This document shows, one piece after another, positions 4,996 to 35,026 of a stretch of 42,592 nucleotides of DNA. A model generated the notes under the pieces. That model did not search any database and was not told the DNA's origin. It saw nothing but the letters and a program-made list of their open reading frames with translations. Positions within the stretch are counted from its first letter, which is position 1, and each line of letters starts with the position of its first letter. A program made the position numbers and the translations under genes. The DNA comes from Opitutales bacterium (GTDB lineage: Bacteria > Verrucomicrobiota > Verrucomicrobiia > Opitutales > Coraliomargaritaceae): assembly GCA_049598495.1 (NCBI GenBank), contig JBMYNR010000013.1:1-42592 (forward strand), given 5' to 3'.

Positions 4996-5072
4996 GCACC
5001 TGTAGCTCAATTGGATAGAGCGCCTGACTACGAATCAGGAGGTTTGGGGTTCAAGTCCCTACAGGTGTGCCA
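4996..5072 (+). tRNA. tRNA-Arg (ACG)
   Basis: GCACCTG/CAGGTGT acceptor stem, CCTGA-CTACGAA-TCAGG anticodon arm, GGTTCAAGTCC T-arm, CCA. Confidence 0.97.
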
Positions 5073-5260
5073 CTTTAAAGCGTTTCGTTCAACGGGGCGC
5101 TTTTTTGTTTGCTTAGGTTCAGCTGTATTCGATCGGGACTTTTCACCTTTGGTGTTCCGGTTCGCTGTCGCGCCCGGTCTTGTCGCCCGCTTCGCGGGCT
5201 CGGAACAAGTCCCTACAGGTGTGCCACTTTAAAGCCCTAAGCAAATCGTTCGGGGCTTTT
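5073..5260 (+). repeat. tRNA-linked repeat element (Arg copy): terminator, structured core, duplicated tRNA 3' end, second terminator
   Basis: 30-bp direct repeat 5052-5081 = 5206-5235. Core motifs TCCGGTTC, GCCCGGTCTTGTCG (5172-5185) and CTCGGAAC (5199-5206) are shared with the Tyr and Gln loci. Confidence 0.9.
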
Positions 5261-5359
5261 ACCACTGTTCGATATGATTGCGGGGCAGTGGGGCATTGCC
5301 CTCCATTCTATCAATCAACTAGCAATTATCTTTCGAAACGGCATAAATACCCTAGGCCT

Positions 5360-6064
5360 CTATGCATAAACCATTCGTGAGCACTGGTCACAGAAAGTCG
5401 GTTCACCCCGGTTTATAGCTTCTCGGGCCACTTCATTGGAAACACGCAGGTGGCAACCTCCACATTTGTGGGCCTCGATGCGTACAACATAAGGTGCACG
5501 TTTCGCCAGCTTCTTAACTCGGTCGTAATGCTCGAGCCAGTTCTCGTCGACTTCTGCCCGTGCGGCCTCAACCGCAGCCTTTGCTTCGTCGATCGAAGCG
5601 TTTAAGTTCTGTTCCAACTCGTCGAGTTGGACGATTTGTCTCCGTTGATCCGCAATCCGAGCATCGATCGTCGCCTTTTCTGAATGGAAGGCTTCCCGCT
5701 CACTGTCAATCTCGAGCATTAGTTCGATTTCGCGCTCCTCCAATCGGGAAATTTCGCTTTCCCCTTTTTCAATTTGGTGGGTAAGGGCGCGATATTCGTC
5801 GTTCTTTTTAACCTCTAACTGCTGAGTCCGGAATTTTGCGATACCTGCTTCTTTGGACTTCACTTCGGTGTCCAGTTCGTGTCGCTCTACTTCCTTCTCT
5901 TTGAGTGCTTGGCTCGCCGCTTCAATATTGGCCTCTTCTGCAGTGATTTTTGCCTCAATTGCCTGGAGGTCTTTTGGTATTCGCGCGAGTTCCTGCTCGA
6001 TTTTCTGAAGCGTGGTATCGCGATCTTGGACAATAAGAAGCTTTTCGATTTGCGGGTCGGCCAT
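5360..6064 (-). CDS. Coiled-coil C4 zinc-ribbon protein (DUF164/CdsZ-like)
   Basis: Long coiled coil and C-terminal CGGC...CDQCSR. Confidence 0.9.
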   Translation of the reverse strand: MADPQIEKLLIVQDRDTTLQKIEQELARIPKDLQAIEAKITAEEANIEAASQALKEKEVERHELDTEVKSKEAGIAKFRTQQLEVKKNDEYRALTHQIEKGESEISRLEEREIELMLEIDSEREAFHSEKATIDARIADQRRQIVQLDELEQNLNASIDEAKAAVEAARAEVDENWLEHYDRVKKLAKRAPYVVRIEAHKCGGCHLRVSNEVAREAINRGEPTFCDQCSRMVYA

Positions 6065-6127
6065 ACTGAGGTATCTCTAGCATACGACTCAAAACAGGCT
6101 CTTCCTCAGAGCAACCCTAAAGCGCCC

Positions 6128-32049: not shown

Positions 32050-33087
32050 ATGTTGGACACGTCAATAGCAAGACCTTTGATACGGGCGACCCCGCGTGGA
32101 CTTTACTGCGAACAGGGCGATTTTTATATCGACCCGTGGCGACGTGTTGAGCGGGCCTTGATTACACATGCACATAGCGACCATGCTCGCAGCGGAATGG
32201 GTGCCTATCTGACCGCACAGAGTGGTCTCGATGTCCTACGCGAACGAATCGGCCTTGGTGCTCCCGCCAGGGGTCTGCCTTTCGGTGAAAGCATGACCGT
32301 TGGCCAGGTGAAGGTCTCGTTTCATCCTGCGGGCCACTTGCTCGGATCTTCTCAGATTCGCGTTGTGCATAAGGGCGAAGTCTGGGTGGTGACTGGGGAT
32401 TACAAAATCGCTCCCGACCTCTCTTGTGAAGCGTTCGAACCTGTTACCTGCAAGCACTTGATTACAGAGGCGACCTTTGCGCTGCCTGTTTATCGATGGC
32501 CGGACTCTGAATTGGTTTTCGATCAGATCAACCAATGGTGGTGCGACAATCAAGAGGCGGGGCGGACCTCCGTTTTATTTGCCTATTCATTAGGCAAGGC
32601 TCAGCGGGTGCTATGTGGCATCGATCCATCCATCGGGCCGATTGGGGTTCATGGCGCGGTTGATAAAATGCTGCCACATTACAAGGCGGCCGGTCGACCC
32701 ATCCCCGAAACGGTTAAAGCGGTCGCAGAAAATACGAATCTGCTCAAAAGACGTGGGTTGATCATCGCGCCGGGCTCCGTTCAAAACACTCCCTGGCTGC
32801 GAAAATTCGCGCCGCATTCACTCGCATTCGCATCGGGATGGATGGCCGTACGTGGGGCGAGGCGTCGACTTGCGCTGGATCGGGGATTCGTCGTTTCCGA
32901 TCATGTGGATTGGCAGGGGATTTTGCATGCTGTCGATGCTAGTGGCGCGCAAACGATCGGTGTAACCCATGGATATGCCGCCCCCCTCGTTCGTTGGTTG
33001 AAGGAAGAGAAGGGCCTTTGTGCTTATGAAGTACCTACGCGGTTTACAGGTGAGTCAGTGAATCACGAAGGGGAGGACAAGTCATGA
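32050..33087 (+). CDS. Ligase-associated DNA damage response exonuclease (MBL/beta-CASP)
   Basis: DFYIDPW, ITHAHSDH, PAGHLLGS, TGDYK, AYSLGKAQR and SDHVDW motifs; start uncertain (32014-32050). Confidence 0.93.
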   Translation: MLDTSIARPLIRATPRGLYCEQGDFYIDPWRRVERALITHAHSDHARSGMGAYLTAQSGLDVLRERIGLGAPARGLPFGESMTVGQVKVSFHPAGHLLGSSQIRVVHKGEVWVVTGDYKIAPDLSCEAFEPVTCKHLITEATFALPVYRWPDSELVFDQINQWWCDNQEAGRTSVLFAYSLGKAQRVLCGIDPSIGPIGVHGAVDKMLPHYKAAGRPIPETVKAVAENTNLLKRRGLIIAPGSVQNTPWLRKFAPHSLAFASGWMAVRGARRRLALDRGFVVSDHVDWQGILHAVDASGAQTIGVTHGYAAPLVRWLKEEKGLCAYEVPTRFTGESVNHEGEDKS

Positions 33088-34688
33088 AACGCTTTACCGA
33101 GTTGTTTATGGAGTTGGATGCATCCAACCGAAAAACGACCAAATTAGCGGCGCTTAAACGGTATTTTGCGGAAGTTCAGCCCGAAGACGGCGCTTGGGCT
33201 GTATTTTTTCTTACAGGGAACCGCTTGAAGCGTCCAATCAAGCTGACTAACTTTCGACAATGGGCAGGCGTGGCCTGCGGCTTTCCCACTTGGATGGTCG
33301 AGGAATGCTACAACCATGTCGGTGATTTGGCCGAAACGCTGGCCTTACTCTTATCGGATCGAGGGTCTATACGGGCTTCACGGGACCGCCCTCTCAACGA
33401 AATGGTCGAGCAGGAGATCGTACCGCTTCGCGATATGGAGACGGATGCGCAGCGCGCGGCAATCGAGCGAATCTGGTCGGAGCTCGATGGGGGCGCTTGT
33501 TTTGTTTTCAACAAGCTCATCACCGGAGGGTTTCGCGTTGGGGTCCATCACACTCTGGTTTGTGCGGCTCTCGCCGAACTCGCCGAAGTGGACCCTGCGG
33601 TTATGGCCCATCGACTTGTGGGCAACTGGAAGCCAACACCAGAGGCCTATCGAGGACTTTTCTCGGGTGAGGCCTCGGGTGATCAAGCAGCTAAGCCGTA
33701 TCCATTTTGTTTAGCATCACCGCTCGATGAAGATGCCAAGACGAGGCTGGGTGAAGTTCACGAGTGGCTGATCGAATGGAAATGGGACGGTATTCGGGCG
33801 CAACTGATTAAGCGAGGTAGCCAGGTGATTATTTGGTCCCGTGGTGAGGAGATGATAACGGATCAGTTTCCTGAAATCGCTGAGGCCGCGGCCCACTGGC
33901 CTGAGGACCTCGTGCTGGATGGCGAGTTGCTCGCGTGGTCTGGTGAGAAGCCGGCTCCGTTTTCAGAGCTTCAACGTCGCCTGGGACGAAAGAAGTTGGG
34001 GCCAAAACTTCGCAAAGAAATACCCGTCGTTTTTATGGCTTACGATATATTAGAAGACAAGGGCAGGGACATTCGATCGGAGTCGACCGAGTATCGACGT
34101 AGGGTGCTGGAATGCGTAGCGGAGTCGGTCAAATGTAATGTATTTTACCTCTCGCCGCTTGTCGAGGGGGATTCCTGGCATACAGTCGGTGCGCTTCGAG
34201 AGCTTTCTCGAGAACGTCGTGTCGAAGGGCTTATGCTAAAACGAAAAGATTCACCATACGGCGTGGGTCGGAAAAAAGGGGATTGGTGGAAATGGAAGGT
34301 GGCTCCATTTACAATCGATGCAGTGATGGTCTACGCTCAGCAGGGGCACGGGCGAAGGGCTGGGCTATACACCGATTATACTTTTTCAGTATGGAAGGAA
34401 GGGGAACTTGTCCCTGTGGCGAAGGCCTACACGGGGCTCAGTGACGCCGAGATTCGAAAAATCGACAGATGGATTCGGCAAAATTCGCTCGACTCTCATG
34501 GGCCTGTGCGGGTGTTGAAGCCCGAGCTTGTTTTTGAAATCGCTTTTGAGGGAATCCAAGAATCCAGGCGGCATAAATCCGGTATCGCCGTCCGCTTTCC
34601 TCGCGTGCTAAGATGGCGAATGGATAAGCAGGCAGAGGAAGCAGATTCCATTGAGACCGTCCGCGCTTTACTCGACATCGGGGCATGA
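33084..34688 (+). CDS. ATP-dependent DNA ligase
   Basis: EWKWDGIR, LDGEL, EGLMLK, WWKWK and RFPR motifs; ATGA overlap with the exonuclease. Confidence 0.96.
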   Translation: MKRFTELFMELDASNRKTTKLAALKRYFAEVQPEDGAWAVFFLTGNRLKRPIKLTNFRQWAGVACGFPTWMVEECYNHVGDLAETLALLLSDRGSIRASRDRPLNEMVEQEIVPLRDMETDAQRAAIERIWSELDGGACFVFNKLITGGFRVGVHHTLVCAALAELAEVDPAVMAHRLVGNWKPTPEAYRGLFSGEASGDQAAKPYPFCLASPLDEDAKTRLGEVHEWLIEWKWDGIRAQLIKRGSQVIIWSRGEEMITDQFPEIAEAAAHWPEDLVLDGELLAWSGEKPAPFSELQRRLGRKKLGPKLRKEIPVVFMAYDILEDKGRDIRSESTEYRRRVLECVAESVKCNVFYLSPLVEGDSWHTVGALRELSRERRVEGLMLKRKDSPYGVGRKKGDWWKWKVAPFTIDAVMVYAQQGHGRRAGLYTDYTFSVWKEGELVPVAKAYTGLSDAEIRKIDRWIRQNSLDSHGPVRVLKPELVFEIAFEGIQESRRHKSGIAVRFPRVLRWRMDKQAEEADSIETVRALLDIGA

Positions 34689-34748
34689 AATTTCTTATAC
34701 AGAGGGCTTGACGAGTAGGATGTGAATTCTACTGTTCCGACCTTCATT

Positions 34749-34822
34749 AGGCTCATGGTGTAATGGTAGCACTACGGTTTTTGGTACCGTCTGTCGGGGT
34801 TCGAATCCCTGTGAGCCTGCCA
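34749..34822 (+). tRNA. tRNA-Gln (TTG)
   Basis: AGGCTCA/TGAGCCT acceptor stem, ACGGT-TTTTGGT-ACCGT anticodon arm, GGTTCGAATCC, CCA; TTGACG/TACTGT promoter-like boxes at 34708-34735. Confidence 0.96.
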
Positions 34823-35026
34823 TTTAAGGCGTCTCGTTCTGCGGGGCGCTTTTTTTGGTTTCTGTTCCGGTGGACGAGGTTGTCGGGATTCTCACCTGCG
34901 GTGTTCCGGTTCCCATTCGCATAGCTCAGGGCCCGGTCTTGTCGCCTTTCGACAAGCTCAAGACTCGGAACGAATCCCTGTGAGCCTGCCATTTAAGGCG
35001 TCTTGTTCTGCGGGGCGCTTTTTTTG
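34823..35026 (+). repeat. tRNA-linked repeat element (Gln copy)
   Basis: 56-bp direct repeat 34802-34857 vs 34971-35026 (1 mismatch) including the terminator. Core motifs at 34931-34944 and 34964-34971. Confidence 0.92.

Follow-up and report, generated by a model that had tools for sequence, protein, structure and literature searches.

The DNA analysed here, called the window throughout, is a whole contig of 42,592 nucleotides (JBMYNR010000013.1, forward strand; contig C13) from the assembly of an Opitutales bacterium (GCA_049598495.1), whose genome is 1.75 Mb and 95% complete. In it the genes for tRNA-Arg(ACG), tRNA-Tyr(GTA) and tRNA-Gln(TTG) are each followed by a repeat unit, and all three units hold a short, gene-less, hairpin-forming segment, the core. 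The core carries GCCCGGTCTTGTCG (5172, 13929, 34931), which has no further occurrence in the window, and the 8-mers CTCGGAAC (5199, 14198, 34964) and TCCGGTTC (5156, 13914, 34905), which have stray window matches besides. A first-pass annotation of this DNA had described three tRNA-linked loci with these shared motifs, and they are real, as are its direct-repeat periods of 154 (Arg), 412 (Tyr) and 169 (Gln) bp. At Rfam's gathering score the window contains four tRNAs and nothing else. The Arg and Gln loci share one build, with the following features.

4996-5072, plus strand: tRNA-Arg(ACG), host gene (tRNA call, Rfam)
5135-5152, plus strand: inverted copy of the tRNA-Arg T-arm (5135-5147), 3-nt loop and T-stem GG (sequence comparison)
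5153-5205, plus strand: Arg core, 53 bp, at the place where a T-loop copy would have TT (T54-T55) (covariance model, 62.6 bits)
5206-5235, plus strand: direct tail copy from C56, 30 nt identical, with a diverged terminator after it (repeat comparison)
34749-34822, plus strand: tRNA-Gln(TTG), host gene (tRNA call, Rfam)
34885-34901, plus strand: inverted copy of the tRNA-Gln T-arm (34885-34896), loop TGC (GCA on the minus strand) and GG (sequence comparison)
34902-34970, plus strand: Gln core, 69 bp (covariance model, 45.7 bits)
34971-35029, plus strand: direct tail copy from C56 and terminator, 59 nt, 97% identical (repeat comparison)

Behind both tRNAs come, in turn, a terminator, a spacer, the inverted T-arm copy, a loop of 3 nt, two T-stem bases, the core and the tail from C56. 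In antisense reading the inverted copy spells out the T-arm, with TGA where TTC would stand: the minus strand has GG-TGA-A-AAGTCCC at Arg, where the tRNA has GG-TTC-AAGTCCC, and GG-TGA-GAATCCC at Gln. With inverted and direct copies of their own T-arm and tail, these units qualify as tRNA-linked repeats in the wide sense. The first-pass annotation had each core followed by a copy of the tRNA from the T-loop on and then by the terminator. The tail copies are indeed present, but the Arg copy spans only 30 nt and its second terminator has diverged; the copies start at C56 at Arg and Gln and at A58 at Tyr, and the tRNA-specific inverted T-arm copy before each core had been missed.

This layout, hereafter the C56 build, holds in 33 of 39 rows linked to a tRNA or transfer-messenger RNA (tmRNA); the other six were dropped, for reasons read by eye (repeat-truncated, in a transposase gene, RtT-type, one-base slip, unrelated tail, wrong tRNA paired). 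A metagenome scan added 13 called tRNA-linked cases among 72 full cores. The build recurs at many tRNA types and at tmRNA, and is tandemly expanded in one genome (G047). It may be tandem in other strains too, which show a depth at Arg of about 1.5-2 times that of the flanks. The inverted copy is tailored to its host: it matches its own tRNA at 229 of 261 positions in 29 distinct units, against 180 ± 4.5 with shuffled partners (0 of 10,000 shuffles reached the observed value), and its position 57 tracks the tRNA's G or A in 28 of the 29. Orthologous Gln units change with tRNA position 57, and AG/GA stems replace GG where the tRNA has them. Empty orthologous loci, which the first-pass annotation had suggested looking for, do exist: the core is present in 3 of 30 tRNA-Gln loci, and six empty ones run straight into the same downstream gene start (by eye).

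Two further observations concern the tRNA-linked units. At two loci (L055, L221) core units lie on the antisense strand of the 5' end of tRNA-Ser, at the D-loop TT, upstream of the gene and with the 5' end duplicated; judged by their layout, they are the same build at another tRNA site. A short repeat (GGGTCTACACCAAAGATTGGGG-like) also occurs behind tRNAs (source genome G000, C8:38501, C15:110 and C35; L490), and core units at Arg(CCT) and where C15 begins are cut short by it.

The core itself is 41-69 bp long, with a mode of 44. Searching the source genome, related genomes and public collections by pattern yielded 163 distinct copies, of which 148 passed an end filter and were used onward; a two-block pattern run on all genomes gave mostly chance coding matches, and three blocks were needed. 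Both ends are sharply defined, the left one as TG(G/T)TCCG and the right one as CTCGGAA, then usually C; of the 163 copies, 147 have T at -3, 153 have G at -2, 150 have A as the last base and 139 have C as the next base. Between them lie an invariant GGTCTTGTCG and two variable hairpins. We found no gene inside the core, and neither target duplication nor terminal inverted repeats. An end-to-end stem, GTTCCG/CGGAAC, was considered and rejected as a requirement, because position -1 is split between G (80 of 163) and T (76 of 163).

An alignment of 51 copies depicts an asymmetric two-hairpin element whose named stems are paired in 96.9% of cells and covary, as the first-pass annotation had proposed to check, with 49 double changes against 13.3 in shuffled alignments. 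Loops of the form C-GNA-G, with a variable middle base, appear on the minus strand in 92 of 147 first hairpins and 89 of 147 second hairpins, and on the plus strand in 1 and 9 of 147, respectively. GNA triloops are typical of DNA hairpins, in which they are a stable motif. The antisense position of these loops would thus point to single-stranded DNA over RNA as the form of the core. Antisense folds of the Arg and Gln units do somewhat better than the sense-strand ones (z of -2.5 and -1.7 as RNA, -2.5 and -1.2 as DNA), weak support for a single-stranded DNA form.

A covariance model finds the core in 78 of 101 genomes of the family, at 1-42 copies per genome, with 33 in the source genome (also 33 by fuzzy pattern). 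In a sample of the phylum it matches 13 of 15 family genomes and gives eight weak single matches among 135 others. Named records with the core come almost entirely from Verrucomicrobiota and mostly bear the label Opitutia/Opitutales (74 of the first 80 listed); the other six are without the ends of the core. The three-block pattern also matches named records labelled as other Opitutia families. No Rfam family matches the core at gathering score. The earlier suggestion of a lineage-restricted, non-autonomous, structured element with tRNA-tailored flanks and no described Rfam family is thus borne out.

The supposition that the core is specific to tRNAs is not supported. In the source genome a called tRNA stands no more than 250 nt ahead of seven of the 33 copies, where chance would give 0.08 (P=1.6e-12), a strong enrichment; the other 26 have no called tRNA nearby (one of them follows a tRNA cut by a contig end), nor do 119 of the 163 distinct copies, although a few of these belong to tRNA units with the tRNA truncated away or left uncalled. 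Scatter independent of tRNAs, named beforehand as evidence against the tRNA link, is thus seen in half: there is enrichment without confinement. Many dispersed source-genome copies are nested in a REP-like repeat (repetitive extragenic palindrome). Elsewhere, the core repeatedly lies directly after the YADD codons of group II intron-type reverse transcriptase (RT) genes (L019, L003, L241, L629) and at a second fixed motif of such genes, a KS/FF site (L019, L176); one further locus (L168) has lost the stretch between two such sites. Because more than one register is seen, these sequences suggest independent insertions at a hotspot.

Wherever a comparison can be made, the core mostly replaces two target bases, usually TT before C. 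An empty look-alike could be found for 35 of the 148 copies, and a 2-nt gap is the commonest outcome (21 of 35); where the empty copy is in the same locus, the gap is 2 nt in all seven cases (TT in five, CT in two). Read as N, the 2-nt gap restores the protein frame at seven of eight junctions in RT, tyrosine-integrase and transposase genes, one of the seven fitting on its right side only and the eighth junction having no recognisable gene. In one locus (L028) the core sits directly in the T-loop of a broken tRNA-Gly.

The Tyr locus differs from the other two and has these features.

13768-13852, plus strand: tRNA-Tyr(GTA), host gene (tRNA call, Rfam)
13894-13910, plus strand: inverted copy of the T-arm, RtT-type (GCCGGA-TGA-GAAC), with its loop and the G that opens the GTTCGAC arm (same layout as E. 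coli rtT)
13911-14204, plus strand: core in the RtT-type unit, replacing TT, split by a MITE (a miniature inverted-repeat transposable element) and absent in other strains (joint 13906/14205)
13948-14190, strand not assigned: 243-bp MITE with TA duplication (13946-47, 14191-92), in the second hairpin of the core
14205-14245, plus strand: rest of the RtT-type body, ending in GCGCGCAGCGCGAGT like E. coli rtT (sub-threshold RF00391 match)
14246-14275, plus strand: direct tRNA-Tyr tail copy from A58 (repeat comparison)

The first-pass annotation had treated the three loci as one kind. Tyr instead has the hallmarks of RtT, namely an inverted T-arm with TGA, a GTTCGA arm and a tail from A58 that starts 41 nt after the core; the RF00391 match (14169-14264) reaches 25.9 bits (E=0.006), below the cut-off of 45, in a unit interrupted by two inserts. 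Because of this build (GCCGGA-TGA-GAAC, A58 tail, RF00391 score) and the nested inserts, the locus reads as three layers, an RtT-type unit, then the core, then the MITE. The suggested comparison with Rfam RtT therefore splits: Tyr has the RtT build, and Arg and Gln give no match to RF00391 at E<=10 or at gathering score. Among tRNA loci of the source genome, seven have the RtT build, six the C56 build and none both. The core also lies inside RtT-type units at four other loci (L188, L160, L190, L545).

The nested element is an ordinary DDE MITE, with terminal inverted repeats, a TA target duplication and 13 near-full copies at 97.6-100% identity, the window copy included. The claim that the Tyr period becomes 167 bp once it is removed is correct because the MITE (243 bp) and the TA duplication together make 245 (412-245=167). 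Many contig ends are broken at this MITE. In other strains it has entered a multi-copy repeat region at window 9990-10240 (joint 10235 to 13944), which has high depth in all four read runs.

Read runs from three studies (X7, X9, X13) contain an empty counterpart of the filled Tyr site. Their contigs, in which about 2-3% of the letters differ, pass from 13906 to 14205 with TTGTT in the gap, so that core and MITE are absent and TT stands instead; depth at the joint is 29, 18 and 96, close to that of the flanks. A fourth run (X5), near-identical to the window, is without this joint. A unit-free Arg or Gln allele was not seen in four runs each, a negative that carries no weight, since contigs drop rare forms.

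Among known systems, the closest are RtT, the 178-bp E. coli tyrT-tyrV repeats (RF00391). Like them, the units lie behind a tRNA and expand in tandem; they consist of an inverted T-arm copy in which TGA has taken the place of TTC, a body rich in hairpins, and the tail once more as a direct copy. The Arg and Gln units are nevertheless a mirror image of RtT: their mismatch stands opposite T-loop positions 55-56 and their tail starts at C56, whereas RtT has 57-58 and A58; their GNA loops are on the antisense strand, and E. coli rtT shows C-GNA-G-type loops on the sense strand (by eye). The core body, moreover, also occurs alone at non-tRNA sites. It is unrelated to the RtT body: the core covariance model has no match in the E. 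coli tyrT locus, just as RF00391 has none at Arg or Gln.

REP/REPIN sequences are described as short, gene-less, lineage-restricted hairpin repeats thought to move as single-stranded DNA by means of an enzyme acting in trans (PMC3116915). The core resembles this REP/REPIN-RAYT system in being short, hairpin-forming, gene-less and lineage-restricted and in being often nested in REP-like repeats; it differs in having no inverted REP doublet and no terminal GTAG/CGTC tag, in its 1-42 copies per genome and in its two-base replacement. No clustering of the core beside a Y1 gene was seen among neighbouring open reading frames (ORFs) or loci. O. terrae has GTAG REPs, and the portion of that report seen mentions no tRNA-linked unit (PMC3733652). 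MITEs are small, non-autonomous and foldable, with filled and empty sites (PMC3184786, as far as seen); unlike a DDE MITE, the core has no terminal inverted repeats, does not duplicate its target but costs it two bases, and falls far below the sizes that PMC3184786 gives for MITEs. A palindrome downstream of tRNAs in PMC5217627 appears, from the portion seen, to be unrelated. Our literature search, which left most subscription journals, older tyrT-repeat papers and supplements outside its coverage, found nothing on the core, the two-base replacement or the C56 mirror layout. These three would be new, in a known kind of repeat, the tRNA-linked repeats that include RtT.

We propose a model where the core is a gene-less element that moves as single-stranded DNA and is pasted in trans, and where, in the units that follow tRNA genes, pairing between the inverted copy and the T-arm selects or presents the target; we hold this model, our leading one, with about even confidence. 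The active form would be the folded antisense strand. At the insertion point 5'-TGA of the inverted copy would pair with 5'-GAA of the target strand, giving two sheared G.A pairs. Tandem G.A pairs are a stable DNA motif. At essential tRNA genes only events that also duplicate the tail would survive. Cutting and pasting would be done by a small nuclease acting in trans, most likely a tRNA-linked GIY-YIG protein, or else a Y1/RAYT transposase. It counts against the model that most copies are dispersed and have no obvious guide, so that insertion as such does not need one.

Small GIY-YIG genes are the best lead to an enzyme, as a candidate only, because they follow tRNAs or a core and because Ssn proteins of the same superfamily cut beside their own hairpin repeat. 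Four of the five such genes in the source genome follow tRNA genes and the fifth follows a core (C50:8186, C8:32345, C23:10754, C17:18113, C52:7492), and tandem arrays of such genes occur in three genomes (G049, G079, G096). Within 700 nt, 3 of 26 tRNA-linked cores have a small GIY-YIG gene and 0 of 63 other cores do. By genome, such a gene is found in 40 of the 78 that have a core and in 4 of the 23 that have none. Ssn proteins are small single-domain GIY-YIG proteins (cd10448) that cut single-stranded DNA near their own hairpin repeat, on one strand only (PMC11893778, in the part seen). The likeness to Ssn-SRM/NTS systems is in genes that follow tRNAs and some core units; that paper shows cutting rather than insertion, and tRNA is nowhere mentioned in its main text. 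The source-genome genes are mostly flanked by another repeat, a hairpin of their own, and are likened at superfamily level, not assigned to cd10448.

Several points weigh against this model. No enzyme is tied to the core, and several GIY-YIG genes of the source genome look broken. Few cores have a GIY-YIG neighbour (3 of the 89 with enough flank, within 700 nt). Y1 co-occurs with the core at least as well as GIY-YIG does, in 61 of the 78 genomes with a core and 7 of the 23 without; streamlined genomes confound both counts. A genome with 22 cores (G048) has no match to the GIY-YIG query, a genus with cores in all four genomes (g36) has no Y1 match, and neither gene is thus required in every genome. 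No neighbouring family stands out near cores, Y1 included, in 150 of 156 flanking ORFs, and no gene-carrying parent copy was found among 118 metagenome and 27 viral loci, with 10 of 64 parts of the metagenome scan covered.

The remaining difficulties concern target and movement. At the empty Tyr allele the short side of the joint is 30 letters at 90% likeness, and the adjoining loop differs too. Dispersed targets are only weakly enriched in hairpin context (13% versus 7%, reached by 61 of 2,000 shuffles) and fold at -3.05 against -2.36 ± 0.27 kcal/mol; a strict hairpin-loop target rule was dropped. A two-base loss is not known to be a feature of HUH strand transfer. Replichore bias is absent in G047 (19 of 42 cores, P=0.64), a genome whose origin is unsure from a lopsided skew sampled at 20 places. 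Kinship among copies and genomes also means that the counts are not independent. Finally, from position 60 on the inverted copy fits its tRNA less closely (20 of 29), a pattern that could equally come from template switching after insertion.

This last point leads to the main rival, a mobile core tailored by copying after insertion. Here the inverted copy would not be a guide: the core would prefer T-loop-like TT/C, fold-back synthesis or quasi-palindrome correction against the tail copy would produce or maintain the likeness later, and the units would be harmless relics, or the core would have invaded older core-less tRNA repeats. We regard this as unlikely, though more deserving of attention than the other alternatives. 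It gains from the decay of the match away from the junction and from the core's presence in RtT-type units, both at Tyr and at the four loci named above. It gains also from cases of the TTC-to-TGA hairpin that have no such core, in E. coli rtT and following tRNAs in other phyla; one such hairpin, ANTYTCACC-TNC-GGTTCRANT, follows tRNA-Leu and -Gln genes in Oscillospiraceae and further remote groups (44 of 121 all-genome pattern matches; L341-L460), in the orientation opposite to the window units. Yet a core-less unit of Arg/Gln type has not turned up in Opitutales, where none of 30 pattern loci from 201 genomes lies within 200 nt behind a tRNA, and 1 of the 121 all-genome matches is in that orientation. 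One format at many tRNA types and at tmRNA argues against later copying, and simple copying would not preserve TGA for TTC.

A structured noncoding RNA (ncRNA), co-transcribed with the tRNA and bearing a CCA-ended tail like RtT, or spread in the manner of a short interspersed nuclear element through group II intron-type RTs, seems improbable. The host-tRNA orientation of the C56 units, their often CCA-ended tails and the repeated position beside YADD codons in RT genes of several loci would suit it, as would the reported transcription and stress response of rttR (10.1101/2024.07.17.603846). However, many units are set apart from their tRNA by a terminator, RNA folding of the sense strand at Arg and Gln does not outdo shuffled sequence (z -1.1 and +0.3), the loop seen most often, GC-TTC-GC, differs from a C-UUCG-G tetraloop, the core occurs in both orientations, in genes and in RtT-type units, and the unit is as patchy as the tRNA-Gln loci show. 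On these sequence features, loops and orientation above all, an RNA is disfavoured. It is very improbable that the units are integrase-island attachment scars, or decoy attB sites soaking up T-loop-specific integrases: tail duplication from the T-loop does resemble attL/attR and one unit closes an integrase-bearing island at tRNA-Leu (L546, G047), but one and the same core is found with many kinds of tRNA as well as inside repeats and coding genes, replaces two bases without a shared crossover core and has no integrase beside any of the three window loci. Both of these latter explanations fit less well than a mobile core.

The neighbourhood of the three loci is ordinary, with an ATP-dependent ligase and citramalate synthase around tRNA-Gln and a chloride channel before tRNA-Tyr. 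The remaining tRNA gene of the window bears out the earlier statement that it lacks the element; no unit lies at its locus.

2204-2279, minus strand: tRNA-Ala (tRNA call)

Elsewhere in the source genome, tRNA-Met and tRNA-Lys (C70:232-386) stand on an 818-bp AT-rich contig unlike the remaining genome, perhaps of phage origin or misbinned.

For RtT and its kin among the tRNA-linked repeats no mode of action is known, and the core family offers a handle on it, in that the repeat body is also found by itself, inserted with sharp ends and by a fixed junction rule, with filled and empty sites in different strains. The mirror layout suggests a single rule, by which insertion takes place at G^A, facing a G.A mismatch in a T-arm-derived hairpin. 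In both builds the inverted copy has TGA against GAA of the target strand, which would give two neighbouring G.A pairs, and the body would be inserted right after that G, on the sense strand in RtT (G57^A58) and on the antisense strand in the C56 units; the strand on which the GNA loops lie in each build fits this. It is tempting to extend this, as a tentative and rather doubtful proposal, to retargetable DNA-guided insertion, in which a 44-base single-stranded DNA transposon has its cut fixed at G^A by the inverted copy, paired to the target through two sheared G.A pairs, and in which tRNA-linked repeats, those of E. coli RtT included, would be footprints of one chemistry on either strand of the near-palindromic T-loop and would count as DNA elements, not as RNA genes. 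With its 41-44 bp, the core would rank among the smallest mobile elements with a defined junction and, if the guide works, it would be a new programmable tool for single-strand insertion.

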